Notes under the pieces: generated by a model
The model's input: the letters and a program-made list of their open reading frames with translations, nothing else
Told to the model about the DNA's origin: nothing
The model's database searches: none
In this document: piece by piece, positions 9,801 through 56,100 of the stretch
Layout: each line of letters starts with the position of its first letter
Position numbering within the stretch: position 1 is the stretch's first letter
Position numbers and translations under genes: made by a program
From: Leucoraja erinacea
Lineage: Eukaryota
DNA length: 64,000 nucleotides
Direction of reading: 5' to 3'
Assembly (NCBI RefSeq): GCF_028641065.1
Contig: NW_026576883.1
Location: 248,001 to 312,000, forward strand

Positions 9801-12800
9801 GTTTGCACTTGAGCAAATCCTTGCTCCTGAGAGAATGGGTTTGCTGTGCTGGGTGAAATTGCGTAGACTAGGCCTGTGTATTCGAGAGTTCAGGTATATT
9901 AGAGGAGATCTCAGTGAAAGTTCTTACAGGGCTCAGTGGGCTGGATCCAGGGAGGATGTTTCCCCTGTCTGAGGAGTCTGAAGCCAGCGGAAACTCTCTC
10001 AGAATGTGGGCTGGACCATTTAGGACAGAGACAAAGAGACATTACTGCACGCAGAGACTGGGCAACCTTTGGAATTCCCTGCACCGATAACTGTGGATAA
10101 TCAGTTATTCCGTGCTCTTGGAGCCAGAGAGCCATGATTATACATTACGGAGTCAGGCCCTTCGGCCCATCACATGAATGTGACATGAACAATCCATCAT
10201 TGTACCGGTACCACAAAATACCTCCCCAGCCTGTCTGAATGACTACCGTCCAGTGGCCCTTACCTCGGTTGTCATGAAATGCTTTGAGGAGCTGGTGAAG
10301 AAACACATCTGCGCCTTCCTTCCTTGGAACATGGACCCGTTGCAGTTCACATACCGTCCGAACAGATCCACGGACGATGCGGTCTCCCAGGTCTTGCACA
10401 CTGCTCTCTCCCATCTGGACAGGCAGAAGGGGGGCTACGTGAGGATGCTGTTCATAGACTACAGTTCAGCCTTCAACACGATAGTCCCCACCAGACTGGC
10501 CGGGAAGCTGCTGGAATTGGGGCTAAACACCTCCCTGTGTGCCTGGGTCCTGGACTTTCTCACTGCCAGGCCCCAGGTAGTCAAGATGGGAGGGAATACA
10601 TCGAAGTCCCTCACCCTGAGCACAGGATCGCCCCAGGGTTGCGTCCTCAGCCCCCTATTGTGCTCCCTGTACACACACGACTGTGTGGCTAGGTTCAGCT
10701 CCAACTCATTAATTAAGTTTGCTGATGACACTGTGGTGGTGGGCCTGATCTCAGACAACGATGAGAAGGCCTACCGGGAGGAGGTGGCTGATCTAGCACT
10801 CTGGTGCCAGGATAACAGCCTCCTCTTGAACATCAAAAAAACGAAGGAGCTGATCATGGACTTTAGGAGGGCACATCATCCGAGGACGTACACTCCATTG
10901 AGGATAAATGGGGATCCTGTGGATAGGGTGAACTGTTTTAAATATCTGGGAGTCCACATCTCCGAGGATATGACATGGGCATCACACGCCTCAGCACTCG
11001 TGAGTAAGGCAAGGCAGCGCCTTTACCACCTCAGGCAATTGAGGAAATTCAGAGTGTCTCCGAGGATCCTCCAGTGCTTCTACGCAGCGGCGGTGGAAAG
11101 CATCTTGTCCGGGAACATTACCATCTAGTTTGGGAATTGCTCTGCCAAGGACAAGAAGGCTCTGCAGAGAGTAGTGCGTTCAGCCGAACGCACTATGGGA
11201 ACTTCACTTGCCCCCCTGCAGGATCTATACATCAGGAGGTGCACCTCCAGAGCCAACAATATCATGAGAGACCCCTTCGACCCCTGCAATGGACTGTTCC
11301 AGCTGCTACGGTCAGGCAAACGCCTCCGTTGCCATGCGGTGAGAACGGAGAGGTTGAGAAGGAGTTTCTTCCCAGAGGCCTTTCGGACTGTAAACGCCTA
11401 TCTCACCAGGGACTAACTCTACTGAACGTTTTTCCTTCCATTATTTATTATGTAAAAGAATATGTGTGTTATGAGTGTGTTTACAGTTTGATTGGTTGTT
11501 TGTCTTTTGCACAAAAGTCCGTGAGCATTGCCACTTTCATTTCACTGCACATCTCGTATGTGTATGTGGCAAATAAACTTGACTTGACTTGACTTGACCT
11601 TTTTCCCCAGCTACACAAATCCCATTTGCCCACATTAGAACCATATTATTCTACACCTCGTTTGCTAAATCGCGATGCCTCTTACATGTACTGATTACAT
11701 CTGATTCCACCACCTCCTCTGGCAAAATATTCCAGGTATTAACAACTCTTTGTGTGAAGAAAACTGTGTCCCCCAGTAATGATATACCTGCATGACAATA
11801 AGGTTTAGATGAATGAGCCTATATCCCGCCGCAGACTTTGACAGACATCTTTGGTATCCACAACATTACCTGTTCTCCACAAACACCTCCTACATTCACA
11901 TCCAACCCTTGAAAACATAAAATAAACAGCAAAGGTTGCAGCACCGATCTCTGCTGCACTCCACCAGTCACAGACCTCCAACCAGCAAAATCATCCTTCT
12001 ACCTCCAACCACCAAGACAATTGTGGGTCCATTTTACCAACTCGTCTTGGATCCCACCTGCATTCGATTTCTGGAAATCTTACATGCAAAACGTTGTCAA
12101 GTCCCTCTGTGAAGTTCATATATTGTTTCACAATGAGATCAGAGTGTTCTTGGTTGTACAGACGCATCAAATCCACGCTCCACTATAGAAAGCAAGTAAA
12201 GAGTAGCAGATGGCCTCGTGCGTCCAGTCCACTCCCGTTCAGTATGATCACAGCAACTCCACCCCACATCCCTACATCCTCTTTAACCACCTCTAATTAC
12301 CCCTCACATCCGTCTCCTCATCTTCCAATCTGCCTCTCCTTTGCCATCTACTGATATTTGAATACCCGCCTTATTTCTCCATCGCCACCCGCAATATCTC
12401 GTTCATCCTCACTTTACGTATTCATTTTCCCCGTCCGCACGTCCCCGCCCCCTCCTGTTCCCGATAACCCGCAGAATCCCCCCTCTCCTCCCCGGTTGTC
12501 AAACTCCTGGAATGATGTCTGTTTTCCATCCGATGTGGTTGTGGGTGAAACCCCGGGCAAGGTGTCAGGTATCAGTTGTCCGCCCGCCTGTGCCCGAGTC
12601 TCCCCCTGTCCCCCGGGGACTCTCTGATTCTCTGCTTCTCCCCCCAGTCTCCGTCATCCTGGATGTGGAAACAGCGTATCCGGTGCTCGAGGTGTCTGAG
12701 GATCGGAAGAGGGTGAGACTGACCGGACCCGAGAGGCGTCTCCCTGACACCGGGAAGAGGTTTACATACTGGCCGTGTGTGCTGGGATCGGAGGGATTCA

Positions 12801-13177
12801 CATCGGGGAGACATTACTGGGATGTGGAGGTGGCGGGGAGGCGGTACTGGAGTCTGGGAGTCGCCGCAGAGTCTGTGGAGAGGAAGAGACAGGTCACACT
12901 GACCCCGGAGACTGGAGTCTGGAGCATCTGGCGGCAGGGTGACGAGTTTAATGCAGCCGCCTCGCCTCTATCCCCTCTCCTCGCCCGTCCCATCCTCGGG
13001 AGGGTGGGAGTTTATCTCAGTTACGAGTCGGGGACAGTTTCATTTTACGACGCGGACACCAAGTCCCATCTCCACACCTTCACTGGGAATAAATTCACAG
13101 AGAAACTTTATCCTTTCTTCGAGACTTATGAAGACCAGTGGCTGAGAATCTGCTCCGGTTCCGCTCCGGGTGTGTAA
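6840..13177 (+). CDS. TRIM gene B, RING/B-box2/coiled-coil/PRY-SPRY E3 ligase (TRIM27/39/69-like class), 470 aa, intact
   Basis: Exons 6840-7250, 7338-7433, 8321-8554, 9209-9231, 9561-9679, 12648-13177 total 1413 nt, open frame, GT-AG introns. PRY-SPRY motifs [49 protein letters not shown] near 13324 and 13362. Confidence 0.93.
10180..11598 (+). mobile_element. Rex1/Babar LINE, 5'-truncated, in gene B intron 5
   Basis: ORF 10253-11128: [11 protein letters not shown], DPLQFx[31 protein letters not shown] premature TAG at 11126 is followed by the continuing frame (ORF 11174-11416); aataaa(cttga)n tail. Confidence 0.9.
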
Positions 13178-13585
13178 AAGGGTCGGGTCCCAGGACCGGT
13201 GTCAGGAGCGGGGCTCAGGGGCTGTGGGGCAGAAACCCGGTGGGCAACAGGTCGGCGCTGAATGAACGGCTCCCATTTAATCCCCAAATTCCGCGTCGTG
13301 AAACAAACCCCAGTGAGCGCGGAAATAAAACCAGGGGGAATGTAAATGTGGGAAGAGTGAAATAAACAGCAACTGAAATCAGAGCTGTCTGTCTGTCTGT
13401 CTGTCTGTCTGTCGACCCGTTCATTTTAACGCGTTAACCGCATCCGGCAACGGAACAGAAATTACTTTTGTGAAAATATAAAGATTGAAACAATCTCCCT
13501 TCCCGCGGGTTCAGCAGCAGCCGCGGGCGGCGGGTCCTGAGCTCCGGGCTCCCCCCCCCCCCTTTAACTTGGAGGCAGGTAAAAC

Positions 13586-13710
13586 CAAAGATCTTAGAGC
13601 AGGCAAGATGGCACGCAAATGCATAGTACGCTCATGGGCAGATTCATGGGTAATTATAGGACCCATTTTAGCAACCAGCCCCCGTTATCTTGTTCCGCCA
13701 TCTTGCTTCC
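13586..13710. mobile_element. Left end of a longer CAAAGATC-terminated DNA element (hAT-like)
   Basis: caaagatcttagagc at 13586 with internal inverted repeat gcaagatggc...gccatcttgc; no right TIR seen. Confidence 0.4.
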
Positions 13711-13749
13711 AGCGGGGAGGGGGAGTGTGTGGCCCGGGGAGAGGGAGTG

Positions 13750-16350: not shown

Positions 16351-19300
16351 GTGTCCCATCTGCAGAGACCACAGCACTCACTTTGACCAATTCATTGTTC
16401 ATGGCTGCACTCGAGAATATTATGTTCAAAAGGCACAAAGTGCTGGAGTAACTCAGCGGGTCATGTGATAGGAACTGAATTCGGACATCCGGCAATCTTC
16501 TACTCTGCCATTCAATCATAGCTGATTTATCTCTCACTCCTAACCCCATTCTCCTGCCTTCTCCCGATAACCTCTGAAATGTCATCTATCAATGTTCTTC
16601 GGGGATGCTGCCTATTCAAATATTCCTTGACCCAAATCAAGCCTGATGGAACAATTAAGTAATTTGGTGTGGAAACAGGCCCCACAGCCCGACTTGCCCC
16701 GTCTACACTGCTCCCGCCTGCCCCAAATTTGGCCCATAACCCTCTAAACATTTTCTAATCGGGTACCTGTCTGAGTCTTTTCAATTTTAGATATACAGCG
16801 TCAGGGTTCAATCCTGACTATGGTTGCTGTCTGTACAGAGTTTGTATGTTCTTTGTGTGACCACATGGGGTTTAGAAACATAGAAATTAGGTGCAGGAGT
16901 AGGCCATTCGTGAGCCTGACCACCATTCATATGGGCTGATTTCCTCAGTATCCCGTACCTGCCTGATACCCCTGATCCCCTTAGCCACAAGGGCCACATC
17001 TAACTCCCTCTTATAGCCAATCCCACATTCTGCAAAGTTCCACATGCAGATTTCCTCGGGGTAGGTTTCTTTCCTCCAATTGCAAAGACATGGATTTGTA
17101 GGTAATAATAATTTTTAAAACGTCCCCAGTGTGTATGATAGTGTTGATGGTAATGATCATAGTTAATGTTAATGGTATTGGTCAGCACGGACTGGTTGGG
17201 CCGAAGGGCCTGTTTCCTAGCATCTCTGAACTGAACCAAACGATACGAAACTAAGTCCATCCAATAGAGCAGATGCCACTGAGTTTAACAAAACTCCTGA
17301 ACGCCAGCATCTCATTCACCCAGCACCCTGCTGCTAAGAGTTGATGTTGGCATCATGTTTGGCATCATTGTGGGTCGAAGGGCCAGTCCTTGTGCTGTGC
17401 TGTTCTAGTGTTCTACGGATATACACTGACATCTTCAAGAAGTTTGAAGTTGTCACACTCTTCATCAGAGGCACAAGCATTCACAAATGGACAATAATCA
17501 AAAGATATTCGGGCAGATCCACAGACAGGAAAGGTTTTGAGGGACAGACACAAATTGCTGGAGTAACTCAGCGGGTCAGGCAGCATCTCTGGAGAGAAGG
17601 AATAGGTGATGTTTTGGATCGAGACCCTTCATCAGTCTGCAGTTCCTTCTTTATATAATATGGGTGAATATGTTGACATATTCTGTTGTGCTGCTGCAAG
17701 TATGAATGTCATTGTTGTGTCTGGGACATGTGGAAATAAAACACTCTTGACTCTTGGACTGAAAGCATCTGTAAATGCTTGTGTCTCAGAACTGTTCTGT
17801 AGCTTTAGCATTTTGTACGTGATTATATTTTCTAGAAACACCTCAAGTCCCATGGCATGATTTGGCACAGAATACATAAAGAACATTGCAATAGTCTTGG
17901 CGTGGTTCAGTCTGAGCCACAGCCCACTGTTCCAATGCACATTATAAGCAGATGGCACTGTGCTAAATGTCGCAACTCTCCCTACACACAAAGAGCAATT
18001 TACAGAGGCCAATTAACCAACAAACCCACATGTCTTTTGGATAATGGAGAAACCCACGTGGTCACGGGGAGAACATGCAAACTCCGAACAGACAGCACCC
18101 AAGGTCAGGATCGAACCCTGGTCTCTGGCCCTGTGAGACAGTGGCTCTACCCGCAGCTCCACAGTACCTCAGAAATATTAACCCTTTCCAGACACTGTAT
18201 ACTGCCCAACCTGCTGAATGCCCACAACGTTTTCTGTTTTATGTTGGCAGTTTATGGTCAGACTCACATTCCAATCACCCATTCAACTAGAAAATATTTT
18301 TTAAAAAACAGATGCTGAAAATCCAAATGGAAACACAATTTGTCATCAGTGTTAGATCTGAAATGGAAGGTCTGTTTCACCTTGCAGATGCTGCCTGACC
18401 TGCTGAGTATTTGGGGCAATTTCTACTTTTATTCCATATTTTGTCATGCATTTGGTTTGGGCCGCAGGTGTGGTAACAGGTCACAAAAGTCACTTATTAA
18501 ATCATATTCCCGCTGTTTCTGCATTTGTCAAAGTTAATTCTTAAAGTTACAGCTGGTCTAGTGGCGGAACCAAGAAGTGACGCAGTTAACGCGTTGAAAT
18601 GAACGGATCGACAGACAGACAGACAGCTCTGATTTCAGTTGCTGTTTATTTCACTCTTCCCACATTTACATTCCCCCTGGTTTTATTTCCGCGCTCGCTG
18701 GGGTTTCACGACGCGGAATTTTGAGATTAAATGGGAGCCGTTCAGCGCCGACCTGTTGTCCACTGGGTTTCTGCCCACAGCCCCTGAGCCCCGCTCCTCA
18801 CGCCGGTCCCGGGACTCGACCCTTTTACACACCCGGAGCGGAACCGGAGCAGATTCTCAGCCACTGATTTACATTACAAGGCCAGAATAAAGGATAAAGT
18901 TTCTCCATGAATTTATTCCCAGTGAAGGTGTAGAGATGGGACTTGGTGTCCGCGTCGTAAAATGAAACTGTCCCGGACTCGTAACTGAGATAAACTCCCA
19001 CCCTCCTGGGAATGGGACGGGCGGGGAGACGGGATGGAGGGGAGGTGAGTGCATTCAACCCATCATCACAACGCTCAATCCTCCAGACTCTAGTCTCCAG
19101 GGTCAGTATGACCCCTCTCTTCCTCTCCACAGACTCTGCGGCGACTCCCAGACTCCAGCCCCGACTCCCCGCCACCTCCACCTCCCAGTAATGTCTCCCC
19201 GATGTGAATCCCTCCGATCCCAGCACACAATGACTGACTGTAAACCTCTTCCCGGTGTCAGGGAGACGCCACCGGGTCCAGTTCCATCTCACCCTCTTCC

Positions 19301-19434
19301 GATCCTCAGACACCTCGAGCCGCGGATGCGCTGTTTCCACATCCAGGGACTGGGGGGACGGAGAGTTCCTGGGGGGTTGGGGGGGAGAAGAGTCAGAGAT
19401 GATCAGAGAGTTCCTTGCGTGGGTGCTTGGGGGG

Positions 19435-19790
19435 GTCTTGCCCAGAGAGCAAGCTAGCTTTAGACCTGGTAGAAACTGCGCAAATCAAGACTCGGGCTGG
19501 GATTGCAGCCCAAAGCAGAAAGCTAGGTCTAAAGGCATCACCATCCTCAAGCCTGGGAAATCTGCTGATGATCCAACTAGTTACCGATCCATTCTCCCTG
19601 AGTATATCTTACTTGCTGTTTGAGTGCCACCTGCTTGCCAGGATTTCTCCATTGGCAGAATCTGTCTTGCCCAGAGAGCAAGCTAGCTTTAGACCTGGTA
19701 GAAACTGCGCAAATCAAGTCCTTGCCCTCACTCCCGATATAGAGGCTGGCTTACAACGTGCCCTGAAAACTGGTGTTGCTCCATCATTTT
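19435..19790 (+). mobile_element. Vingi/Ingi-like LINE RT fragment with an internal ~55-bp duplication
   Basis: ILKPGKSADDPTSYRSI..RISPLAESVLPREQASFRPGRNCANQVLALTPDIEAGLQRALKTG; 19435-19489 repeats at ~19664-19718. Confidence 0.7.
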
Positions 19791-20054
19791 CCCGATCGAA
19801 CCAGCTACCCTTCAGGGGATAAAAAGTCGCAGCCTGAAGTACAGCCGGGGATCCCTGAAGAAGAAGCTTGCATAACTTCTACCGTGGGCCAGGATTTACC
19901 ATCAGAAATAACCTTTGCGGCGGGGACTTTAAATCTCAACCCACAATCTTGAAGAAAGAATGGAGTCCACGGGGGGGGGGGGGGGGGGGGGGAATGGCTG
20001 GGATTGCATACTCATGGAGTTTTATTATTTTGTTAAGGATGAGCAGGGGTCATT

Positions 20055-20420
20055 CTTATTGAAACATACTAACATTATAAGATTATTAAGGGTTTGGACA
20101 CGCTAGAGGCAGGAAACATGTTTCCGATGTTGGGGGAGTCCAGAACCAGGTTTAAGAATAAGGGGTAAGCCATTTAAAACGGAGATGAGGAAAAACTTTT
20201 TCACACAGAGTTGTTTGTCTGTGGAATTATCTGCCTCAGAGGGCGGTGGAGGCTGGTTCTCTGGATGCTTTCAAGAGAGAGTTATATAAAGATAGCAGTC
20301 AAGGGATATGGGGAGAAGGCAGGAACGGGGTACTGATTGTGGATACACAGCCATAATCACATTGAATGGCAGTGGTGGCTCGAGGGGCCGAATGGCCTAC
20401 TCCTGCACCTATTGTCTATT
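20055..20420 (+). mobile_element. CR1 3' fragment
   Basis: Matches the 3' end of the CR1 at 1470-1847. Confidence 0.8.
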
Positions 20421-21320
20421 GGAGGATTGTGTGTTGTATGTGGTGGCTGATCGGGTGAAAGGTAAGGACACGGGGGACTCTGCCTATGTTGCGACTAGGG
20501 GGAGGGGGAGCAAGGGCAGAGCTGCAGGGTACCGAGGAGACACGAGTGTGGGCCTCATCTATGATGGGAGAGGGGAACCCTCGTTCCCTAAAGAATGAGG
20601 ACATCTCTGATGTCCTGGTATGGAACCCCTCATCTTGGATGCAGATGCAGCGTAGACGGAGGAATTGGGGATAGAGTCTTTGCAGGAAGCAGGGTGGGGA
20701 GAAGTGTAGTCGAGATATTTGTGGGAGTCAGTGGGTTTGTAATGGACGTCTATCGATAGTCTATTAACTGTGATGGAGACTCTGAGATCAAGAAAGGGGA
20801 GGGATGTGTCGGTGATGGTCCAAGTAAATTTGATTGCAGGATGGAAATTGGTGGTGGAGTTGATGAAGTCCATGAGTTCTGCATGGGTGCAGGAGGTAGC
20901 ACCGATGCAGTCATCAATGTAATGGAGATAGAGTTTGGGGATAGGGCCTTGGACTTGGAGGAAGTGGGAGGATTCGAAGGAGAGGTTATTAAGAGTGAGA
21001 ACCAGCTCCGCTGGGCGGAGTAGTGTTAGTAGAGGGAAATTGGATGGTTCTGCAGTCGAGGAATAAACGGAGGGCTTTAAGCTCTTCCTCGTGGGAGATG
21101 GAGGTGCAGAGTGGCTGAACGTCCATGGTAAAGATGAGGAGGTGGGGGCTCTGAAAGCGGAAGTCGTTAAAGGGACAAAGGCATGTGAGGTATCTTGGAC
21201 AAAGGTCGGAAGGGATTGGACCCAGGGGGGAGAGGATGGAGTCGAGGTACGTGGAAATCATTACAGTGGGACAGGACAGTTGTGTTTATGGATTTTGGGG
21301 AGAAGGTAAAACCGGGCTGT
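20420..21320 (-). mobile_element. Penelope-like element RT fragment (gene D intron 5)
   Basis: FTMDVQPL..SISHEE; FHPAIKFTW..LPFLDL..KPTDSHKYLDYTSPHPASCKDSIP; FFRERGFP, typical PLE RT motifs. Confidence 0.85.
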
Positions 21321-23088
21321 GTGAGGCTGGGGAATGATAAGGTGTACGGTTTAAAGGTGTCAGAAACAAGAATAATGGAAAAGGTACAAGCTTTACCTTG
21401 CTTGAAGTCATCAGGTATTTCTTTGAATGCCGTGTTGACTGAAACAGGGCAATGAAACTTTTCAATCGGTAAGACTTTATCCACCACTGACAGTGGTTTG
21501 GCTTCATCACGAACCCTGGAAATATTGAACAGCTGGTTATAAACTAAACATTAGAAATATTTTGAGTTGTTCCACAAAAACTCACAATGTTTTCCACAAG
21601 ACAATGTCCTACCTTCGCTTGCGACCAACTTCCTCCTGAAAGAAATAAAACACAAATCTCAATTGAGATGGACCGTCCTCATCCCGACAGTGGGAATTTC
21701 ACCAAATTTCTACAACCCTCTGATAATTCCCATTTCCCAACTCTTATCGCCACTGCCATGCAGAGAGAAAGCGGATATTGTCGCAGAGATGTAGAACGAT
21801 GGGGGAAAGCACAAGGAATGTTCATGAGAATGACGCCATAACTGAGAGGATGGAAAGTAATGAAAAGACTGGGCAGGTCGTGGGATTTCATTTGGAGAAG
21901 ATGTCAGGAATGATGAGAGGGAATTTAATATTATCGGTGGATTTAAATGGGTGGGGATGAAATAATATCTCAAATCGGGGAGACCAAGAATCGAAACTGA
22001 AATGTAACTTCATAAATACTGAAAGGAATGCAGTCATGAGAACATGGACCTCACTGCACTGGAGGGACTTAAGCCAACAGCAGAGATAAATTTAAGTGCA
22101 AGTGGGATAAACACATTAGGGCTCCTGGAATTTGGGGTATTGTTACCGGGTGTGGAGAGTAGATGGGAGGGATGATGAGTGGAGCAGAAATCTTGACTGG
22201 ATAGGATGGGCCAAATGGCCTGTCTATGATGTAGAATGGGATGTCATTCTATGGTGAAACAAGGTGGACAAAACAAAAAGAGCAAATTCTCCCAAGGTGA
22301 CTACCCACTGCTGATGGGAACTGGATATAGATGATCAATCTGATGTGTGCGCCACGTTCTAGATTACAATGTTAATCCCCACAATGTGGTCATGGCTGAT
22401 CTAGCCCAGGACCCAACTCCTCCTCTTAGCCCCATTCCTTTCGATTTCAATTCCCCGAATGTTCAAAATGTATCTTCCTCTGGTTTTAATACATCTAACA
22501 GGTTAAACCTCTCAGAGTCTCTTGGTTGGAGAATCCCAGATATTCACTGCCCTCTGTCCATTCGTGGTCCTTGGGATCAGATATAGGATCACCTGTCATT
22601 GTTCGAAACTCCACATAATACAAACACCTCTCTACATTCTAGCCAGACAGTCCTGAGATCCTATAGATTATACGGGAGGACAATTAGTTTGGGAACAACA
22701 ACAGCTGGAACAGAGGGAACATTTGCCCAGTTCTCAATTATTGGTAAATGCAGAATTTATTTCAGAAATGTCACCCATCATTTTGCGACTGCACTTTCAC
22801 TTCACCAAACTGTAGTGTAACCCCTCACCTTCAGAAACACCACACTGTCTTTTTGATCCATCTGTTGCTGCAACTTAAATAGATCCTGCTGAATAGATTT
22901 TAAATTCTCTTGAATCTCTCCAAGATTTTTCTCCAAAGTATTTAGAATCTTCTTCTCTTGCTCCCGGATATCTGCCAGTACGCGCTGCTCTTTCTCAGTG
23001 AGAACCTTGTGCAGTTCAGCAAACTGGGATGTGATTTTCGACTGAAGGTTGTGTGACTGTTCCTGGGAAATGAAAGGTGAAGATCAAT

Positions 23089-23745
23089 ATGGTATGTTAG
23101 CATTCATAGCAAAAGGATTTGAGTATAGGAGCAGGGAGGTTCTACTGCAGTTGTACAGGGTCTTGGTGAGACCACACCTGGAGTATTGCGTACAGTTTTG
23201 GTCTCCTAATCTGATGAAAGACATTCTTGCCATAGAGGGAGTACAAAGATGGTTCACCAGACTGATTCCTGGGATGTCAGGACTTTCATATGAAGAAAGA
23301 TTGGATAGACTCGGCTTGTACTCGCTAGAATTTAGAAGATTGAGGGGGGATCTTATAGAAACTTACAACATTCTTAAGGGGTTGGACAGGCTAGATGCAG
23401 GAAGATTATTCCCGATGTTGAGGAAGTCCAGAACAAGGGGTCACAGTTTAAGGATAAGAGGGAAATCTTTTAGGACCGAGATGAGGAAAATATTTTTCAC
23501 ACAGAGAGTGGTGAATCTCTGGAATTCTCTGCCACAGAAGGTAGTTGAGGCCAGTTCATTGGCTATACTTAAGAGGGAGTTAGATGTAGCCCTTGTGGCT
23601 GAAGGGATCAGGGGGTATGGAGAGAAGGCAGGTACAGGATACTGAGTTGGAAGATCAACCATGATCATATTGAATGGCGGAGCAGGCTCGAAGGGCTGAT
23701 TGGCCTCTACTCCTGCACCTATTTTCTATGTTTCTATGTCTATGG
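23089..23745 (+). mobile_element. CR1 LINE 3' fragment in gene D intron 2
   Basis: ORF 23049-23645 carries CR1 motifs; tttctatg tail; inserted ~25 nt from the exon-3 acceptor. Confidence 0.9.
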
Positions 23746-24636
23746 TTCTAATATATAATGTCACTGATTGTGTTTCCTCGCCACTTTGACCGTGACATTT
23801 GTCCTGTTCATTTTTTATTTGCTTTGGCAATTCAATTCAATTCCAAATGCTTCTGAAATATTGTGACTGTAATCTTATAACCCATCAAACCTCTACTCCC
23901 AATGCAATTCCCTGCTGCCTATTCATTTTCTCGTGAAAGCTGCCCTATTATTACAAGCATCACAGGGATCAAATCTACACAAGTTCAGGAAATCGAAATC
24001 GAAAGCCTCACCAGAACTCCAGAAATCTTCTGTTTCTGTTGCTGCTCCATTTGCTGGATCTCTGATTCCTTTTTTGTGAGAGATTCGAAGGAAGATTTCA
24101 CCTGATCCTGGAGTTGGGTTTGAAAATCCGAGAATAAAAGTGTTAGACAAAAAAACAGGAATTAAACAATTATGCGATCAAAATTGATTCGCTTTTACCT
24201 TGTAGAATTCTGCAGCTTCTGCTATCAGCGTGAAGTTGTGAGCTTTGTGTTCCTGCCCGGCTGCACAAATCACACAGATCAGCTTCTTGTCAGTTTCACA
24301 AAACAGCTTCAGTTCTTCCTGATGTTCCTCGCACTGAAGTTTACTTTCCTTCTCTGTCCGATTCGGGCCCAGTGTTCGAGCTTTCTCAGACAGTCTCGCC
24401 AAAGCCCGATTCACCCTGAGGGTGCGGTCTGTAAACTGCTCTCTACATTCCGGGCAGGAGTTTCTCCCCTCCCTGTCCCAACTCTGTGTGATGCATGAGC
24501 GGCAGAAGTTGTGCCCGCACTCCAGCGCCACCGGATCGGTGAAGAAATTCAGGCAGAAGGGACAAATTATCTCCGCCGTCCAACTCTCGGCCTGGTCGTT
24601 CGAAACCATTTTAACTATCCACTTCCTGGTTCAAAA

Positions 24637-30825: not shown

Positions 30826-33800
30826 TTACACACCCGGAGCGGAATCAAAGCAGATTCTCAGCCAATTTCCATCCCAAGGCCCGAAGAAAGGATAGAGTTT
30901 CTCCGTGAATTTATTCTCAGTGAAGGTGTGGAGATGGGACTTGGTTTCTGTGTTGTAAAACGAAACAGTCCCGGACTCGTAATTGAGATAAACTCCCACC
31001 CTCCCGGGGAGAGGATGGGCGGGGAAACGGGATGGAGGGGAGGTGAATACTTCAAAGTCGTCAGCCGCCAGCTTGATCCTCCAGACTCCAGTCTCCGGGG
31101 TCAGTGTGGCCTGCTCCTTCCTCTCCACAGACTCTGCGGCGACTCCCAGACTCCAGCCCCGACTCCCCGCCACCTCCACCTCCCAGTAATGTCTCCCCGA
31201 TGTAAATCCCTCCGATCCCAGCACACACGGACTGCTTGAAAACCTCTTCTTGTTGTCAGCGAGATTCCTCCGGGACCGGGTCAGTCTCACCCTCTTCCGA
31301 TCCTCGGACACCTCGAGCCGTGCATGCGCTGTTTCTATATCCAGGGTGATGGAGACTGGGGGGGAGAAGCAGAGAATCAGAGAGTCCTCGTGGGTTGGGG
31401 GGAGACTTGGGCTGGAGAGAGTCTAAAGTCATTGGTGAGTACAACCAAGAACACACTGATCTCATTGTGAACCAATATATGAACTTCACTGAGGGACCTG
31501 ACAATATTGCGCATGTAAGGCTGGCCCAGAAAGTGAAGGCAGGTAGGATCCAAGGCGAGCTGGTGAAATGGATCCACAATTGGCTTGGTGGTTGGAGGTA
31601 GAAGGTAGCGGTAGATGAGATTTTCTGCTTGGAGGTCTGTGACTGGTGGTGTGCAGCAGAGATCGGTGCTGCAACCTTTGGCTTGGATGTGAATGTAGGT
31701 GTGATTAGTAAGTCTGTGGAGGACTCAAATGTGTGGATAGCGGGGAAGGTTGTCAAAGTTTGCAGCAGGATATCGGGTAGATTATCAAAATCGTATTCGC
31801 ATGCAGGGATATCAAATCAAGAGAGTGCAGATTTATATTGAGAGCAAGGAATTTTAAAGTATATTTGAGATTTAGGTTTTTTTACACTGAGAGTGAGTGA
31901 TATCTGGAACATGCCAGAGGAGGTAGTGGAGTGAGATATAATCACTATATTTGAGGCACTTAAATAGGTGAGGTGTAGAAGAATACCGATGTAATGTGGG
32001 CAAATCAATTAGCATAGCTGGGGAAGAGGTGGACATGGACGTGATGGGCCAAAGGGCCTGATTCTGTAATGTACAACCATGGCTCTCAGCTCCAAGAGCA
32101 CTGAATGACTGAGTCTCCACAGCCACCGCTGCAGGGAATTCCAAAAGTTCCCCCAGTCCCTGTATGCAGTAAGTCTCCTTATCTCTGTCCTACATGGTGC
32201 AGCCCACATTCTCCACACCCCTCAGACGGGGGGGAAACATCCTCCCTGCATCCAGCCCACTGAGCCCTGTAAGGACTTTGTGTTTCACTGTGATCTCCTC
32301 TAATACACTCAAACGCTCGAGTACACAGGCCTAGTCTACTCAATCTCACCCCGCACAACAAACTCACTCTCCTAGGAATTAGTATTGTCAATCTTGGCTG
32401 CATTTTCTTCCGTGTCGGTACATAGGAGCATAGGAACACAAGAAAACAGGAGCAAGATTAGGATCCTCTCCTCAGGCTTGCCCCTTGACACTATAAGGTT
32501 GTTAGCAAGTTAGAGAGGGTGCAAAAGGATTTATGATCATTTCATCAGGTCTGAAGGGCTGGGTTATAAGGAGACGTTGGACAGGCAAGGACATATTTCT
32601 TTAGAGCCCATCAGAATGCTTTTATAGATGTATATAAGATCTATATAAGGTGCAAAGATAAGGTGAATAGCCACAGTATTTTACCCATGGCAGGATAATC
32701 TAAACCTCTGACTCTATGATGCTTCCCAGCTGATGAGTTTAGTGTTAGATCAAATCTCCAATTTCCCTTCAGTCCACAATAGAAGTAATCTTTGCATCTA
32801 GATATTGCTTAAACATGTATAGGAATGAACTACAGATGCTGGTTTAAACCGAAGATAGACTCAAAAACTGGAGGAACAATGAATAGAAGTTATGCAAAAA
32901 ATAACAATGAGAGAGGAAACAGGCCACTGTTAACTCTTTGTTAGGTGAAAACGAGAAACTAGTGTGACTTGGGCGGGTGAGGGGTAGACGGGCATGATAT
33001 TCACCTCCAGAAAAAAAGTAGGAAGTGTTATCCGAGGGTCCGGGAAGCTGGTTAGGTCCCCCAATGGGGGTTTAGAGAGCTCCTGTATTTTCAATAAATT
33101 GAAAGTGATTCCCAAGCTTTCTGCTGGTAGTTTACATAACAGAGGCGTAGAATTTTTCTAACACATAACCAGTAAAATAACCCCCAAAAGATAAATATTT
33201 CATGAAATAAATGACTTCATACAGCTAAAAAAATCTTTACAAAAAGGGTTACCAGAAATGTCTCTTTGCCCAGCACTGTGTGCAGACAGCAGAGAAAAAG
33301 CGATTTGGGCTGCAGCCAACTTCTGCTTCAGTAAGGGAAGCTGGTCAATGATTGGCCGCAACGCCCCTCGGAGACTGCGTCTGATTGGCCGCCGAGTGAC
33401 TGGCGCATTATCTGATTGGACACAACGTCCTTGGAGACAGCGGCTGATTGGACGGCAGGAAACCGATTTGTTGATTGATCGGGAATTTTAAAGGAAATAA
33501 GGGTCGGTGATTGGATGCAACCCCCTTAGAGACAGCGGTTGATTAGTTGACAAATAATCAGGCACAAAAATTGAAAAATAGGAAAACCAAAAAAATAAAT
33601 TGGAATTACGATTTAAATCGGAAGAATATCATGCCTGGATACAGAGAGAGGAGATGTCGGGCTACCTGAAGTTAGAGAAATCAACATTTCGTACCACTGG
33701 ACTGTAAGTTGCCCAAGCGAAATATGAAATGCTGTTCCTCCAATTTGCATTTAACCTCACTCTGACAATGGAGCAGACCTAGGACAGAAAGGTCTGTGTG

Positions 33801-36800
33801 GGAATGGGAAGGAGAATTAAAGTGTTCAGCAACCAAGAGATCAGGTAGGTTCAGGCAGACTGAGCAAAGGTGTTCAGCGAAACGATCGCCCAGTCTGCGT
33901 TTGGTCTCATTGATGTATCCGAGTCCACATCTTGAACAATGGTTACAGCAGATGAGGTTGGAGGAGGTGCAAGTGAATCCCTGCCTAACCTGAAAGGGAC
34001 TGTTGGGGTTCCTGGACAGGGTCGAGGGAGGCGATATAGGGACCAGTGTTGCATCTTCTGCGGTTGCAGGGGAAGGTACCTGGGGAAGGTGTTGTTTAGG
34101 TGGGAAGTGATGAGTTAACCAAGGAGTTGCAGAAGGAATGGTCTCTGTGGAAGGTAGAAAGGGGTGGAGATGGGAAAATGCGGCTAGTGGTGGGATCCCG
34201 TTGGAGGTGGCGGAAATTTTGGAGGATTATGTGTTGTATGCGGCGACTGATCAAGTGAAAGGTAAGGACAAGGGGGACTCTGTCTATGTTGTGACTAGGG
34301 GGAGCAAGGGCAGAACTGCAGGATACTGAGGGGACACGATTGTGGGCCTTGTCTATGATGGGAGAAGGGAACCCCCGTTCCCTAAAGAATGAGAACATCT
34401 CGGATGTCCTGGTATGGAACCCCTCATCTTGGGCGCAGATGCGGCGTTAGCGGAGGAATTGGGAGTAGGGGATAGAGTCTTTGCAGGAAGCAGAGTGGGG
34501 TGAAGTGCAGTCGAGATAGTTGTGGGAGTCAGTAGGCTTGTAATAGACGTCTATCGATAGTCTATTTCCTGTGATGGCGACTGTGGGATCAAGAAAGGGG
34601 AGGGAGGTGTTGATCATGGTCCAAGTAAATTTGATTGCAGGATGAAAATTGGTGAGGTTAATGAAGTCCATGAGTTCTGCATGGGTGCAGGAGGTAGCAC
34701 CAATGCAGTCATCAATGTAATGGAGATAGAGTTTGGGGATAGGGCCTTGGACTTGGAGGAAGTGGGAGGGTTCAAAGGAGAAGTTATTAAGAGTGAGAAC
34801 CAGCTCCGCTGGGCGGAGTAGTGTTAGTAGAGGGAAAGTGGATGATTCTATGGTTGAGGAAGAAACGGAGGGCTTTAAGCTCTTCCTGGTGGGGGATGGA
34901 GGTGTAGAGTGACATGGTAAAGATGAGGGGGTGGGGGCTCTGAAAGGCAAGTGAGGTCCTTGGACATAGGGATTGGACTAGGGGGGGGGGGGGGGGGAGA
35001 GATAGGATGGAATAGTGAAAATCATTTCAGTGGGATTGGAGAGTTGTGTTTATGGATTTTGGGGAGAAGGTAAAACCCCTTTGCGAGGCTTGGAAATGAT
35101 AAGGTGTCTGGTGCATGGCTTAAACATATCAGAAACAAGAATAATGGAAAAGGTATAAGCTTTACCTTGCTTGAAGTCATCAGATACATCTTTGACTGTC
35201 GTGTTGAATGAAACAGGCCAAAGAAACTTTTCAATCTGCATGGCTTCATCCACCACCGACAGTGGTTTGGGTTCATCACGAATCCTGGAAATATTGAACA
35301 GCTGGTTATAAACTGAGCATTAGAAATGTTTTGAGTTGTTCCACAAAAACTTGCACTGTTTCCATCAAGACAATGTCCTACCTTCGCTTGCGACCAACTT
35401 CCTCCTGAAAGAAATAAAACACAAATCTCAATTGAAATGGACCGTCCTCATCCCGACAGCGGGAATTTCACCAAATCTCTACAACCCTCTGATAATTCCC
35501 ATTTCCCAACTCTTATGGCCACTGTCATGCAGACAGAAAGTGGATATTGCCGCAGAGATGTAGAACGATGGGGGAAAGCACAAGGAATGTTCATGAGAAT
35601 GACGTCATAACTGAGAGGATGGAACTTAATGAAAAGACTGGGCAGGTCGTGGGATTTCATCTGGAGAAGATGTCAGGAATGATGAGACTGAATTTAATAT
35701 TATCGGTGGATTTAAATGGAGGGAGGAGAGTAGATGGGAGGGATGATGAGTGGAGCAGAAATCTGACCGGATAGGATGGGCCGAAAGGCCTGTCTATGAA
35801 GGACAAAACAAACAGAGCAAATTCCCCCAAGGTGACCACCCACTGCTGATGGGAACCGGATATAGATGATCAATCTGATGTGTGCGCCACGTTCTAGATT
35901 TCAATGTTAATCCCCACAATGTGGTCATGGCTGATCTAGCCCAGGGCTGAACTCCTCCTCTTTGCCCAATTCCCTTTGATTTCAATTCCCAGAATTTTCA
36001 AAAATGTATCTTCCTCTGGTTTAAATTTGTCTAACATTTTAAACCTCTCAGAGTCTCATGGTTGGAGAATCCCAGAGATTTACTGCCCTCTGTCCATTCG
36101 TGGTCCTTGGGATCAGATATAGGATCACCCGTCGTTGTTCTAAACGCTACAGAACACAAACACCTCTCTACATTCCGGCCAGATATTCCTCAGATCCCAT
36201 AGATTATATGGGAGGCCAATTAGTTTAGGAACAACACAGCTGGAACAGAGAGAACATTTACCCAGTTCTCAATTACTGGTAAATGCAGCATTTATTTCGG
36301 AAATGTCACCCACCATTTTGTGACTGCACTTTTACTTTACCAAACTGTAGTGTAACCCCTCACCTTCAGAAACACTGCACTGTCTTTTTGATCCATATGT
36401 TGCTGCATCTTATTGAGATCCTCCTGAATAGATTTTAAATTCTCTTGAATTGATCCAAGATTTTTCTCCATTGTATTAAGAATCTTCTTCTCTTCCTCAC
36501 GGATATCTGCCAGTGCGCACTGCTCATTCTCAGTGAGAATCTGGTGCTGTTCAGCAAACTGGGATGAGATCTCGGACTGAAGGTTGTGTGACTGTTCCTG
36601 TGAAATGAAAGGTGAAGATCAATAAATGTCACTGATTGTGTTTCCCTAAGACTTTGACATTTGCCCTGTGTAATATTTATTTGCTTTGGCAATTCAATTC
36701 TTTGTCGAAATGCTTCTGAAATATCGTGATGGTAATCTTATATTGTTATAACCCATAAATCCTCTACCCCCAATGCAATTCCCTCCTGCCTGTTCCTTTT

Positions 36801-38885
36801 CACGTGCCCTTTAATTCCAATTCATCCGCCCACCACCCACTTACCCAGGGTTAATTTACAGTCTGCGATTGACCATTGAACCAGCGTGTATTGGAGACGT
36901 GGAAGGAATCCGACGTGGTCACAGGGAGAAGGCGTGAAGGCTGCCCTATTATTACACGCATCACAGGGATCAAATCTACAAAAGATCAGGAAATCAAAAC
37001 TGGAAAGCCTCACCAGAACTCCAGAAATATTCTTTTTCTGTTGCTGCACCATTTGCTGGACCTCGGATTCTTTTTTTGTGATAGTCTGGACGGAAGCTTT
37101 CACCTGACCCTGGGATTGTGTTTGAAAATCAGAAAAGTGTTAGACAATAAAAAAGGAATTAAACAATGTAGCGTTGTTACAATCCCCGCGATCAGTGGGG
37201 CTCTAGATCTACCAAGTGCTGTGCGCGCAACTCGAGAGGTTGTGGGGGGGGGGGGGGGGGTGAGTTAACTGCATGTTTTTCATTAGTGGTCAGGGAGGGA
37301 TTTCCTCATACGACACGCTTATGACGTAAAGGAAATCTCGGTCTGTCATTCCATTCGTGTTTTTTTCCAACACGACGTTGCTGGTCTATTGAATCGCTGG
37401 GCTTGAAAGTCAGGCACAACTTAAACGCCTTCAAAATCACAGATCGCAGGTTCAGGACAAAACAAAATGTAGGACGTTTATTTAACATCTTATCTAGTTT
37501 TTGGTGTAATTTCATTTTAATCTGTTGATGCAAAATAAGTTAATTTAGCCCTGATAACGGCTGTGTCCTGCCTGCCAGCTGTGAGTGTGAGCCACATGAT
37601 CATTATATGTATTTTGTGTAATTGTCTACCCACAAACACTATTTTCATACTGAATATGTTGAACATGGCAGCTGCCTCACCGATTTGTATGTACTGTGTT
37701 TTTAGTATGAAAATATTGATAATGGATAGGCAATTGCACAAAATCCTGATAATTAGATGTTCTTAAGACATGGTTGTGCAAAAAATAATGCTTTTGATTA
37801 TCTTAAGTGGATGTTTGAGGATTTTGAACACATGTCTGTGTTAAATGACCCTTGCCCATAGAAACATAGAAATTAGGTGCTGGAGTAGGCCATTCGGTAT
37901 CCTGTACCTGCCTTCTCTCCATACCCCCTGATCCCTTTAGCCACAACTAACTCCCTCTTAAATATAGCCAATGAACTGGCCTCAACTACCTTCTGTGGCA
38001 GAGAATTCCACAGATTCACCACTCTCTGTGTGAAAAATGTTTTTCTCATCTCGGTCCTAAAAGACTTCCCCCTCATCCTTAAACTGTGACCACTTGTTCG
38101 GGACTTCCCCAACATCGGGAATAATCTTCCTACATCTAGCCTGTCCAACCCCTTAAGAATTTTTCCAACCCCTTTTTTTGCTTTTGTGTTAAGTTAATGG
38201 AAAAGATGCTTATTTCCGAGCAGTTTTGTAGTAAATGCCTACCATGTTCTGTGTGCTAAGCAAAGCAAGAATTTCATTGTACTATCATGGACACATGACA
38301 ATAAACTCACTTGAAATTGACTATAACATTTTTAATACAGGAGATATGAAAGTGAATTAGGTATCAAATTAAAGGTTTTTTTTTATGCTTTATCTGATGG
38401 GATAAATTCACAGGCTTGATTTTTAACATCTCAACATTTTGTAATATCCCTAAACAATCATCGATTTGGCTTACCTTGTAGAATTCAGCAGCTTCTGCTA
38501 TCAGCGTGAAGCTGTGAGACTTGTGTTCCCGCCCGGCTGCACAAACCACACAGATCAGCTTCTCGTCTGTTTCGCAAAACAGCTTCAGTTCTTCCTGATG
38601 ATCCTCGCACTGAAGTTTACTCGCCTTCTCTGTTCGATTCGGGCCCAGTGTTCGAGCTTTCTCAGACAATCTCGCCAAGGCCCGATTCACCCTGAGGGTG
38701 CGGTCTGTAAATTCCTCTCTACATTCCGGGCAGGAGTTTCTCCCCTCCCTGTCCCAACTCTGTGTGATGCATGAGCGGCAGAAGTTGTGCCCGCAGTCCA
38801 GGGAGACCGGATCGGTGAAGAAATCCAGGCAGATGGGACAAATTATCTCCGCGGTCCAACTCTCCACCTGGTCGTTCGCAGCCAT
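30826..38885 (-). CDS. TRIM gene E, RING/B-box2/coiled-coil/PRY-SPRY, 470 aa, intact
   Basis: Exons 38885-38475, 37109-37014, 36597-36364, 35404-35382, 35284-35166, 31355-30826 total 1413 nt, open, GT-AG. Confidence 0.92.
33340..33625. repeat. CCAAT-box (ATTGG) array of an unclassified repeat; second copy at ~48965-49405
   Basis: attgg at ~33351, 33384, 33415, 33447 and 33510; the surrounding sequence aligns by eye with 48965-49400. Confidence 0.7.
33650..35080 (-). mobile_element. Penelope-like element, RT plus GIY-YIG endonuclease fragments (gene E intron 5)
   Basis: LVLTLNNFSF..YIDDCIG..FHPAIKFTW..KPTDSHNYLD..SIPYSQFLR; ~33870-33945 reads CSRCGLGYINETKRRLGDRFAEHL. Confidence 0.88.
37169..38452. 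mobile_element. Non-autonomous DNA transposon (hAT-like) in gene E intron 1, with a nested CR1 3' end (~37858-38165, -)
   Basis: Imperfect TIRs tagcgttgttacaa / ttgtaatatcccta, flanks aacaatg/aacaatc. Intron 1 is ~90 nt in all other paralogs. The right portion recurs at ~51900-52088, ending gtaacattccta. Confidence 0.6.
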
Positions 38886-51505: not shown

Positions 51506-51667
51506 AAAGTTCTGATCTTGAGAATATCACATTTTTGAATTTTCAAGGCAGTCTGGGTGTTTATTACTATTTCCGTCACAAAGGTCAATTTTGTAATTAT
51601 CTACAATTAGGTAACTAAGTAATTAAACACTTTAATTTCAGGTCATCCAAGTAAGATGTATCATGTG

Positions 51668-51785
51668 TTTAAGAAGGAACTTCAGATGGTGGAAAATCGA
51701 AGGTACACAAAAAAGCTGGAGAAACTCCAGCTTTTTTGTGTACCTTCGATTTTCCACCATCTGAAGTTCCTTTTTTGTGTACCTA
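51668..51785. repeat. Long inverted repeat (same family as 1028-1164; related ~50553-50665 and ~58771-58955)
   Basis: aaggaacttcagatggtggaaaatcgaaggtacacaaaaaagctggag-aaa-ctccagcttttttgtgtaccttcgattttccaccatctgaagttcctt; flanked by atgtatcat repeats. Confidence 0.8.
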
Positions 51786-53152: not shown

Positions 53153-56100
53153 TTACACACCCAGAGCGGAACCGGAGCAGATTCTCAGCCAATTTCCGTC
53201 CCAAGTCCCAAAGAACGGATAAAGTTTCTCCGTGAATTTATTCCCAGTGAAGGTGTGGACATGGGACTTGGTGTCCGCGTCGTAAAATGAAACTGTCCCG
53301 GACTCGTAACTGAGATAAACTCCCACCCTCCCGGGGATGGGACGGGCGGGGAGACGGGATGTTGGGGAGGTGAGTGCATCAAACTCGCCTTGCCGCCGCC
53401 AGATCCTCCAGACACCAGTCTCGGGGGTCAGTGTGACCCCTCTCTTCCTCTCCACAGACTCTGCGGCGACTCCCAAACTCCAGCCCCGACTCCCCGCCAC
53501 CTCCACCTCCCAGTAATGTCTCCCCGATGTGAATCCCTCCGATCCCAGCACACACACCGCGACTGTAAACCTCTTCCCGGTGTCAGGGAGACTCCTCCGG
53601 GTCTCGGCCCATCTCACCTTCTTCCGATCCTCAGACACCTCGAGCCGCGGATGCGCTGATTCCATATCCATGGTGACGGAGACTGGGGATGAGAAGAAGA
53701 GAATCAGAGAGTCCCCGGGGGTCGGGGGGGAGACTCGGGCAGCGCAGCCCCGGGACCGGGGGAGAAGCCGCTCAGCATCATGGGGGAGGGTGGACAGGAA
53801 GGACAAGTGTGGAGAGTGAGGAGAATTGCAAGATTGCGGTGGGGATGGAGAAATGAAGCGGGCTAAATAGATATGGAGGCAGAACGGAGCAAGAGGATAT
53901 TGAGGTGAGTGGTAATTTGCGGTTGTTAAAGAGGAGGTAGAGGTGTGGGGTGGAGCCGCCATGATCATAGTGAAGGGGCCAGATGACCTGCCCCTGTTTC
54001 TTTGAGAGGAGGGTGAGAGAGAGGGAGGGGTGGCTTGGACCATGGAAGGAAGCAGAGGTTGAATGATCGGGCGTTAGACAGAATGGGTGGAGACTTGTGG
54101 TTGTATGGTCGCCGAAAGAGAGGGGATTCACGGGTGGATTTGATGGGTATCTACAACCAAAAACACACTGATCTCATTGTGAACCAATGTATGATCTTCA
54201 CTGAGGAACTTGACAATGTTGCGCATGTAAGGCTGGTCCAGAAAGGCAGGTGGGATCCAAGGCGAGCTGGTGAAATGGATCCCAAATTGGTTTGGTAGTT
54301 GGAGGTAGAAGGTAGCGGTAGAAAGATGATTTTTCTGCTTGGAGGTCTGTGACTGGTGGAGTGCAGCAGAGATCGGTGCTGCAACCTTTGCTGTTTATGT
54401 TATATGTTCATGGCTTGGATGTGAAAGTAGGAGGTGTGATTAGTAAATTTGTGCAGGATGGAAAAATTGTGGATAGCAGGGATGGCTGTCAAAGTCTGCT
54501 GCAGGATATCGGGAAACTTACAAAATTCTTAAGGGGTTGGACAGGCTAGATGAAGGAAGATTGTTCCCGATGTTGGGGAAGTCCAGGACAAGGGGTCACA
54601 GCTTAAGGATAATGGGGAAATCCTTTAAAACCGAGATGAGGAGAACTTTTTTCACACAGAGAGTGGTGAATCTCTGGAACTCTCTGCCACAGAGGTAGTT
54701 GAGGCCAGTTCATTGGCTATATTTAAGAGGGAGTTAGATGTGGCCCTTGTGGCCAAGGGGATCAGAGGGTATGGAGAGAAGGCAGGTACGGGATACTGAG
54801 TTGGATGATCAGCCATGATCATATTAAATGGCGGTGCAGGCTCGAAGGGCCGAATGGCCTACTCCTGCACCTTATTCTATGTTCTATGTTCTATGTAGAT
54901 TATCAAAATCGTATACGCATGCAGGGATATCAGATCAAGAGAGTGCAGGTTTATCTTTAGAGCAAGGAATTTTAAAGTGGTTCTGAGTTGTAAGTTTTCT
55001 TTACATTGAGAGTGGGTGATATCTGGAACATGCTACAGAGAGATGGTGGAGTGAGATATAATCACTATATTTGAGACACTTAAATAGGTGAGGTGCAGAA
55101 TAGCAATGTAAATGGGCAAATCGATTAGTATAGCTGGGAAATAGGTGGACATGGACGTGATGGGCCGAAGGGCCTGATTCTGTAATGTACAACCATGGTT
55201 CTCAGCACCAAGAGCACTGAAAAACTGAGTCTCCACAGCCACCGGTGCAGGGAATTCCAAAGGTTCCCCAGTCTCTGCGTGCAGTAATGTCTCCTTATCC
55301 CTGTCCTACAAGGTGCAGCCCACATTCTGAGAAGGTGCCCGTTCTCCAGACCCCACAGACTGTGGAAACATCCTCCCTGCATCCAGCCCACTGAGCCCTG
55401 TAAGAACTTTGTTTCACTGAGATCTCCTCCAATACACCCGAACTCTCGAGTACCCAGACCTAGTCTACTCAATCTCACCCCGCACAACAAAATCATTGTC
55501 CCAGGAACAAGTATTGTTATTCTTTGCTTCAATTCCTCTGTGTCAAGTCTGTCAATTTATCGGTACACAGAAGCATAGGAACACAAGAAAACAGGAGCAG
55601 GTTTAGGATCCGCTCCTCAGGCTTGCCTCTCCATTCAATGTGATCATGGCTGATATAAACTGGCACCAATTCCTCTTTTGTGTGAGTTCCCCATAATCTA
55701 AAATATTCGATCAATCAAATATTTATTTGTAGCCAAGTTGCACATATCCAATAACTCAGCGTTTCACCACCACCTTGGGCACAACATTCCAGATATTCAC
55801 TGCCCTCTGAGAGATGCAACTTCCACACATCGCATGAGAGGCCGCTCTGGAAGGTTGGATCTCATGGAATCCGGGGTGAACTAGCCGATGGAATACAACA
55901 TTTACCTGAAGGTCGCAGACAGAGGATGTTGGTAGAGGGTTGTTTTTCAGACTGGAGACAGAGTCCACTGTTGTTCCTTATTTATATACACGATTGGGTG
56001 TGTATGTAGGTTGCACGGTTAGTCAGTTTGCAGATGAAACTAAAATTGGTGACATTGTGGAGAGTGAAGAAGGTTATCTGAGAGTAAATAGGATCCCTGT

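Follow-up and report, generated by a model that had tools for sequence, protein, structure and literature searches.

The B30.2 (PRY-SPRY) domain of TRIM5alpha, TRIM21 and TRIM7 binds the ligand, the coiled coil forms a dimer and the RING domain is responsible for ubiquitination. Among expanded families of such genes, recombination breakpoints were reported in btr, in the sections of a zebrafish study that deal with this group (PMC3137616), and the Discussion of the squamate harbiTRIM study describes recombination in the mammalian TRIM5/6/22/34 cluster as limited (PMC12262214). The present analysis concerns a tandem array of TRIM genes in a 64,000-nucleotide window (the whole stretch analysed, positions 248,001 to 312,000 of contig NW_026576883.1) from the skate Leucoraja erinacea, which an earlier reading of the same DNA (the original prediction) had described as a cluster with hypervariable PRY-SPRY loops on a near-identical framework. 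That the array represents a real, positively selected class IV TRIM family is well supported by the data given below. The pattern itself is already known from finTRIM, btr, trim35, NLR-B30.2 and harbiTRIM genes, and the new part is the apparent lineage-wide sharing of the domain between TRIM and butyrophilin genes in skates and rays. Among living lineages that have interferon and gamma-delta T cells, the cartilaginous fishes are the oldest.

Positive selection on the B30.2 exon

Gene models, built from the window alone, showed five TRIM copies (A, B, D, E and F) and one remnant (X) in tandem. Genes B, E and F each consist of six exons (411, 96, 234, 23, 119 and 530 nt) joined at canonical splice sites, and each encodes 470 amino acid residues in an open frame. 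The F and B models were identical to the L. erinacea proteins P0036 and P0157, respectively, both named zinc-binding protein A33-like. Pfam domains of P0036 were RING (residues 16–55), B-box (90–128), TRIM_CC (155–248, below the cut-off), PRY (297–345) and SPRY (349–457). In F these five domains thus follow one another in a single frame, in the arrangement expected of a class IV TRIM, and the exon layout of B and E is the same. The RING motif is intact in A, B, D, E and F, from which an E3 ubiquitin ligase activity of the array proteins can be inferred.

The B30.2 domain is encoded by exon 6, located at 12648..13177 (+) in B and at 53153..53682 (–) in F, and the coordinates 12648 and 53682 of the original prediction are the first bases of these two exons. 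All 16 patches quoted there were found at the places given, one flank being different (F has KVR, not RVR, preceding WAETRRS). In B the variable patches lie at approximately 12719-12739, 12767-12775, 12842-12853, 12887-12901, 12923-12958 and 13121-13138, and in F at approximately 53611-53591, 53563-53555, 53488-53477, 53443-53429, 53407-53372 and 53209-53192; further family-variable patches that had been overlooked were located at F positions 10–12, 65–68 and 80–84. The description of four full B30.2 exons holds for B, E and F, whereas the D exon lacks 8 nt after the homologous acceptor. Likewise, the framework is shared and the differences are patchy, but instead of being identical almost letter for letter it showed 80–88% identity over 141–144 columns, as compared with 23–55% in the 31 family-variable columns and 71–81% over the whole domain of the four exons. 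The 18 columns in which the four exons have at least three different residues were clustered: they formed 11 close pairs, whereas 3.3 would be expected by chance (p = 5e-5, 20,000 permutations).

Site models were run with our own codon code (F3x4, kappa free, naive Bayes posteriors, no explicit recombination model). For the B30.2 exon of B, D, E and F, the comparison of M2a with M1a gave 2dlnL = 42.6 (p ~1e-10) and assigned an omega of 9.7 to 15% of sites, and that of M8 with M7, the check proposed in the original prediction, gave 2dlnL = 43.6, in agreement with positive selection at omega ~10 on ~15% of sites. When D was left out, the intact genes B, E and F still gave 22.9 and 23.8, respectively (p ~1e-5). 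Posterior values above 0.9 were obtained for sites 24, 26, 30, 40-42, 81, 94, 96, 97, 103, 160 and 162. Dividing the columns by family entropy resulted in an omega of 7.5 for the 31 variable columns and 0.81 for the 144 others, and in the variable columns pN was 0.29–0.53 and pS 0.11–0.19. A hotspot origin of the patches was rejected (17.3 against a fast-neutral-class null, p = 3e-5, fitted rate multiplier 0.67), as was a multinucleotide origin (33.1). Codon models of the RING and coiled-coil exons of the window genes gave no signal of positive selection. As a separate observation, the linker encoded by exons 4-5 of B, D, E and F (e.g., 9209-9679) showed an omega of 2.6 (p = 0.001).

Probable gene conversion within the array

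The dS between B and D, E or F was 0.33–0.47 in exons 2-3 and 0.07–0.12 in exon 6 (Fisher tests of the exon contrast, p 1e-4 to 1e-3; D–F control, p = 0.62). Noncoding differences between B and the same three genes amounted to 18–19% in intron 3, 27–33% in the 60 nt before exon 2 and 5–11% in the 3′ untranslated region (3′UTR), where D, E and F differ from one another by more (11–14%). Judged by its coiled-coil exons, intron 3 and pre-exon-2 sequence, B is an old paralog. Since it is distant in the coiled coil and intron 3 and close in exon 6 and the 3′UTR, the simplest reading is that conversion or crossover replaced its 3′ end. Gene conversion, which the original prediction had not considered, has likely homogenised the B30.2 framework. 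Among 26 single-gene skate TRIMs the ray-defined framework columns were 95% identical on average, a value inflated by the choice of homologs for B30.2 similarity to F, as compared with 79% for RING/B-box, 71% for the coiled coil and 57% for the linker.

The variable positions in the family and on the predicted structure

A search with the F exon gave 1278 longer proteins at E <= 1e-40. Among the 120 matches listed, 58 were from Rhinoraja, 15 from Leucoraja and 3 from Amblyraja, followed by rays and sharks, and many of the Rhinoraja matches among those listed were on one 41.5-Mb sequence. By this homolog listing the lineage expansion proposed in the original prediction is large in skates and rays. 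The automatic names of the homologs at NCBI are A33-, TRIM39- and NF7 (nuclear factor 7)-like.

Column entropy was determined for 76 skate domains, all chosen by B30.2 similarity to F, with the window genes and P0036 excluded and some isoform duplicates kept. It was at least 1.5 in 20 of 175 columns (F positions 12, 24, 26, 28, 40-42, 65, 66, 81, 94, 96, 97, 99, 101, 103, 158, 159, 161 and 162). These 20 columns include 12 of the 18 window columns with at least three residues. The variability in the window correlated with the entropy of the 76 other skate domains (rho 0.51), and the latter with the entropy of 44 ray domains (rho 0.71).

The AlphaFold model of the F domain (predicted local distance difference test score, pLDDT, 82.7) matched the B30.2 domains of BTN3, TRIM21 and TRIM7 with Z 24–25.5 and a root-mean-square deviation of 1.4–1.8. 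Twelve of the top 20 variable columns were in loops and eight on predicted strands, where they often alternate, which suggests that in the model their side chains point toward one sheet surface. The pocket residues of BTN3A1, H351, H378, K393, R412, R418 and R469 according to the pertinent section of the BTN3A1 report (PMC4303140), align to F positions 41, 68, 83, 101, 107 and 158, with entropies of 1.79, 1.42, 1.00, 1.66, 0.84 and 1.98, respectively. All six fall within the 35 of 175 columns having an entropy of at least 0.8 (p = 4e-5). Because these positions are among the most variable columns, the patches coincide with the ligand face known from other B30.2 domains and extend to the floor of the pocket. 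Omega above 1 at sites on this face, as obtained for the skate array, is the pattern of TRIM5alpha and finTRIMs. The variable ligand-binding loops of the original prediction thus correspond to the B30.2 ligand face, except that eight of the 20 most variable columns are on strands. F itself has A, S, T, D, T and G at the six pocket positions and keeps none of the basic or histidine residues.

The B30.2 domain of butyrophilin-like genes

Skate butyrophilin-like models were among the best matches of the F exon. A search with the immunoglobulin (Ig) region only gave 37 proteins, mostly regular models from skates, rays and sharks with IgV, IgC, transmembrane (TM) and B30.2 regions. Seven diagnostic sites, defined on TRIMs alone, distinguish the TRIM domains of skates (81) from those of myliobatiforms (33). 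The butyrophilin (BTN) set included three skate members first found by B30.2 similarity and some isoform rows, and it left out BTNs of less than 62% framework identity to F as well as a second BTN class. At the diagnostic sites, seven skate BTN domains matched the skate state in 42 of 49 cells but never showed the ray state, sixteen stingray and mobulid domains had the ray state in 110 of 112 cells and the skate state in none, and sawfish (two) and shark (seven) domains showed mixed states. In the seven skate BTN domains, the variation is concentrated in the columns that are variable in the TRIMs (3.15 distinct residues vs. 1.26 elsewhere).

In the tree of a 42-row subsample (146 framework columns) the domains grouped by lineage with modest support, and BTN monophyly was rejected (p-AU 3e-6, approximately unbiased test on the 42 rows, framed after the first tree was seen). 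A quick tree of 114 domains, from which 38 Rhinoraja rows had been dropped at random, had weak deep support. Since the label-shuffle test on this 114-domain tree was not significant (176/500), reliance is placed on the diagnostic sites and the 42-row test. Judged by these predicted proteins, butyrophilin-like genes of skates and rays carry their own lineage's TRIM version of the B30.2 domain. PRY-SPRY exchange among TRIMs and butyrophilins of the harbiTRIM type was found on predicted proteins, the evidence from the window DNA being confined to TRIMs.

In the second butyrophilin class, residues 292-470 of P0020 (Rhinoraja) form a B30.2 tract with 81% framework identity to skate TRIMs, whereas P0033, P0039 and P0041 from sawfish and carpet sharks reach only 52–60% in the matching tract; the C-terminal B30.2 of P0020 looks like a partial conversion tract. 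In the sturgeon Acipenser, the models P0003, P0032, P0050, P0051, P0081 and P0110 contain tandem B30.2 domains common to butyrophilin-like proteins and proteins of other kinds, which may be a parallel to the skates and rays or the result of fused annotations.

For the butyrophilin link alone, a somewhat unlikely alternative to repeated conversion is that gene prediction fused Ig exons with neighbouring TRIM exons, or that single exons were captured. The link rests on predicted proteins, many cluster models are visibly fused (600–1600 residues), and zebrafish provides a precedent for mis-joined B30.2 exons in the section concerned of bioRxiv 027151. Most BTN models are, however, regular IgV-IgC-TM-B30.2 proteins of 462–484 residues from about ten species, and single capture would require separate events in skates, in myliobatiforms and probably in a catshark. 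We put forward tentatively, and with some doubt, the broader proposal that one elasmobranch B30.2 exon could serve as a common cassette, continually homogenised and diversified in its pocket, for dozens of cytosolic TRIM ligases and membrane butyrophilins. If so, the ligand specificity that a TRIM acquires under selection could be transferred to a butyrophilin, which would signal it to gamma-delta T cells, and transfer could also take place in the opposite direction.

Organization of the window

Gene A (205..2452, –) is represented by exons 1-3 (2452-2048, 1957-1862 and 438-205) in an open frame with GT/AG sites, the rest lying beyond the window edge. Remnant X (5483..6769, –) is a pseudogene fragment abutting the 5′ end of B; in it, intron 3 of a paralog continues directly into the middle part of a B30.2 exon that has another, internal deletion. 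Gene B (6840..13177, +; exons 6840-7250, 7338-7433, 8321-8554, 9209-9231, 9561-9679 and 12648-13177) is intact and inverted relative to the other TRIM copies. The upstream block common to A, D, E and F is missing in B; at 6769-6840 the inverted intron 3 of remnant X replaces the B upstream region, about 70 nt from the ATG.

Gene D (18825..24609, –) has open exons 1-5 (24609-24199, 24107-24012, 23062-22829, 21635-21613 and 21515-21397) and an incomplete exon 6. Its 8 missing nucleotides are just past the homologous acceptor at 19349, reading from which stops after 14 codons, and a sequence like a long interspersed nuclear element (LINE) is immediately upstream. D is probably a frameshifted pseudogene. 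Alternative AG sites at offsets -116, -104 and +19 would restore the frame; they have weak pyrimidine tracts or are inside the upstream insertion, and their use is not supported by the sequence.

Gene E (30826..38885, –; exons 38885-38475, 37109-37014, 36597-36364, 35404-35382, 35284-35166 and 31355-30826) is intact, and the framework of its exon 6 (30826..31355) is the most diverged of the four. Gene F (53153..59691, –) is also intact, with exons 59691-59281, 59190-59095, 58499-58266, 57240-57218, 57114-56996 and 53682-53153. An extra exon upstream of exon 6, considered for a block conserved in B, E and F, was rejected, as the frames join without it.

Between E and F, a non-LTR retrotransposon of about 5.7 kb (39610-45298, +) is broken into several frames and contains a gag-like open reading frame with CCHC knuckles, endonuclease, reverse transcriptase and RNase H; its architecture resembles that of the I/Nimb clade. 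Other broken mobile-element fragments were found at 33684-34977, 20419-21285, 46287-46703 and 10184-11413; they include sequences that are, by eye, presumably Penelope-like and BEL/Pao-like, two that were tested giving no Pfam match, and a LINE bearing reverse transcriptase in intron 5 of B. A purine-rich tract (60979-61533) precedes GC-rich 32-bp tandem arrays inside a duplicated unit of about 1.2 kb (61738-63877).

Expression and regulatory motifs

Raw RNA reads from runs labelled as this species were compared with exons 1-5 of F at a likeness of at least 98%. All four joints of these exons were present in the reads of the bulk runs (17–20 reads each in X23 and 4–9 in X24), and loose read ends at exon 5 continue into the start of F's own exon 6. 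F is expressed in these two bulk runs and in one single-cell run. The expression of the paralogs, on which the original prediction was made to depend, is in this way documented for F, the gene examined. At two exon positions of F, 57075 and 59098, almost every read has a base other than that of the window, which may reflect alleles, an assembly error or a very close paralog.

The start of intron 2 contains a motif like the interferon-stimulated response element (ISRE) inside F (59070-59082, –; exact consensus) and E (36989-37001, –; one mismatch) and tandem GAAA repeats in D (23989-24004); no ISRE-like motif was present at this place in A and B. The motif could drive an inducible or RING-less transcript.

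Proposed function of the array

On balance, we consider it probable that the skate class IV TRIMs, with B30.2 domains selected at predicted pocket residues and a framework likely homogenised by conversion, are cytosolic E3-ligase sensors of pathogen-derived ligands, the array likely being an immune-sensor repertoire. The coiled coil would dimerise and present two B30.2 domains, the pocket of each paralog would bind a different, probably pathogen-derived ligand, and RING would then ubiquitinate the target or a signalling partner, by analogy with TRIM5alpha, TRIM21 and TRIM7. Birth-and-death duplication would supply the copies, with D and X as casualties; selection would diversify the pocket while conversion resets the framework to one lineage-typical form, and conversion may also spread pocket variants and reach butyrophilin-like genes.

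Several points weigh against this reading. The ligand, induction and antiviral role of the array TRIMs are proposed by analogy. The main weaknesses of the selection analysis are a sample of four coding sequences, one of them (D) a probable pseudogene, and the high framework omega, which is near neutral at 0.81 and suggests weak constraint in these copies. At a stricter entropy cut of 1.4, four of the six pocket positions fall in the top 23 columns (p = 0.003). For conversion, the 110 nt past exon 3 of B are no more distant from D, E and F than these are mutually, and the framework identity of the skate homologs is inflated, as stated above. The number of ISRE-like sites in the window does not stand out clearly from the chance expectation (9 vs. 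4.9 and 8 vs. 4.0, each count being reached by 6 of 100 shuffles).

The same selection and conversion might have acted with host proteins or selfish genetic elements as ligands, e.g., in oocytes or blood cells, which we regard as unlikely. The homologs bear the names A33-like and nuclear factor 7-like, and A33 and nuclear factor 7 are amphibian oocyte proteins. F was expressed in the runs described above, for which no treatment was given, and zebrafish bloodthirsty, of the btr group, functions in erythropoiesis, as stated in the btr sections of PMC3137616. These names are, however, automatic best-hit labels, and the omega of ~10 at pocket positions, a feature that recurs in both skates and rays, is the pattern reported for antiviral TRIM5alpha and for virus-linked finTRIMs.

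We likewise regard it as unlikely that the pocket, like that of BTN3A1, detects small metabolites produced by microbes or under stress, with TRIM and butyrophilin genes forming one sensor repertoire. The variable columns include the phosphoantigen-pocket positions of BTN3A1, BTN3 domains are the top sequence and fold matches, and these columns are also the variable ones in skate BTN domains. Nevertheless, the protein binders TRIM21 and TRIM7 fit the model equally well, F is devoid of all six basic or histidine pocket residues, and rapid diversification would be better explained by evolving protein ligands.

It is very improbable that the array is decaying under relaxed constraint with patchwork conversion from diverged paralogs and no adaptive diversification, as the probable frameshift in D, remnant X, the framework omega and the lack of a homologous upstream region in B might suggest. 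In the variable columns pN exceeds pS, and the data fit omega above 1 far better than a fast neutral class. Moreover, rays are variable in these columns too, and the frames of B, E and F are intact, with splicing observed for F.

Comparison with known systems

The literature search, with most subscription journals outside its coverage, found no description of the TRIM family from elasmobranchs, and the whale shark genome paper contains no whole-word TRIM, B30.2 or SPRY. A review of fish B30.2 expansions (Suurvali, Garroway, Boudinot) may cover sharks. According to a butyrophilin survey of 2026, some BTNs of cartilaginous fishes are located on the MHC chromosome, and a search of this survey gave no match to "TRIM" or "conversion" (PMC12841164).

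A large selected class IV TRIM family in cartilaginous fishes means that repertoires of putative B30.2-based sensors arose anew in a group other than teleosts and squamates, and the 20 most variable positions provide a short list for ligand tests. If TRIM-butyrophilin exon exchange is true, a repertoire of intracellular ligases has its specificities in common with a family of receptors that activate T cells, and B30.2 trees are unusable for orthology in sharks and rays.

The B30.2 domains of mammalian TRIM5alpha, TRIM21, TRIM7 and BTN3A1 have the same fold (Z ~25) and ligand face; they differ in sequence (35–43% identity) and in that their ligands are known. In zebrafish NLR-B30.2 genes, as described in the relevant sections of that report, conversion likewise homogenises B30.2 across diverged groups under positive selection, on an NLR scaffold and with B30.2 domains mostly apart from the TRIM ones, whereas in skates those of BTNs and TRIMs are intermixed (bioRxiv 10.1101/027151).

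In teleost finTRIMs, selected sites are also concentrated in the B30.2 variable regions (15.6–17.6% of sites). FinTRIMs are, according to the same sections, related to TRIM16/25 and have no counterpart in the elephant shark draft (PMC2657112). Membership of the skate genes in this group was rejected on their one B-box (Pfam, P0036), as compared with two in finTRIMs. In place of the parallel to finTRIMs drawn in the original prediction, the single B-box and the A33-, TRIM39- and NF7-like names make btr likely the closer teleost counterpart. The sections on zebrafish btr (TRIM39-like) and trim35/hltr describe the same features, i.e., an expanded set of class IV TRIMs whose B30.2 domains have hypervariable sites under positive selection. 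These genes are teleost ones, with 4.5–10% of sites selected against ~15% in the skate array, and the passages mention no sharing with butyrophilins, unlike the skate family (PMC3137616).

The squamate harbiTRIM locus, in the sections describing it, has in common with the skates tandem class IV TRIMs beside butyrophilins and PRY-SPRY recombination at the locus. Antiviral activity against flavivirus capsid was shown there (PMC12262214), whereas for the skate array an antiviral role is proposed by analogy. In skates and rays, nearly all of the lineage-diagnostic TRIM residues are also present in the butyrophilin domains.

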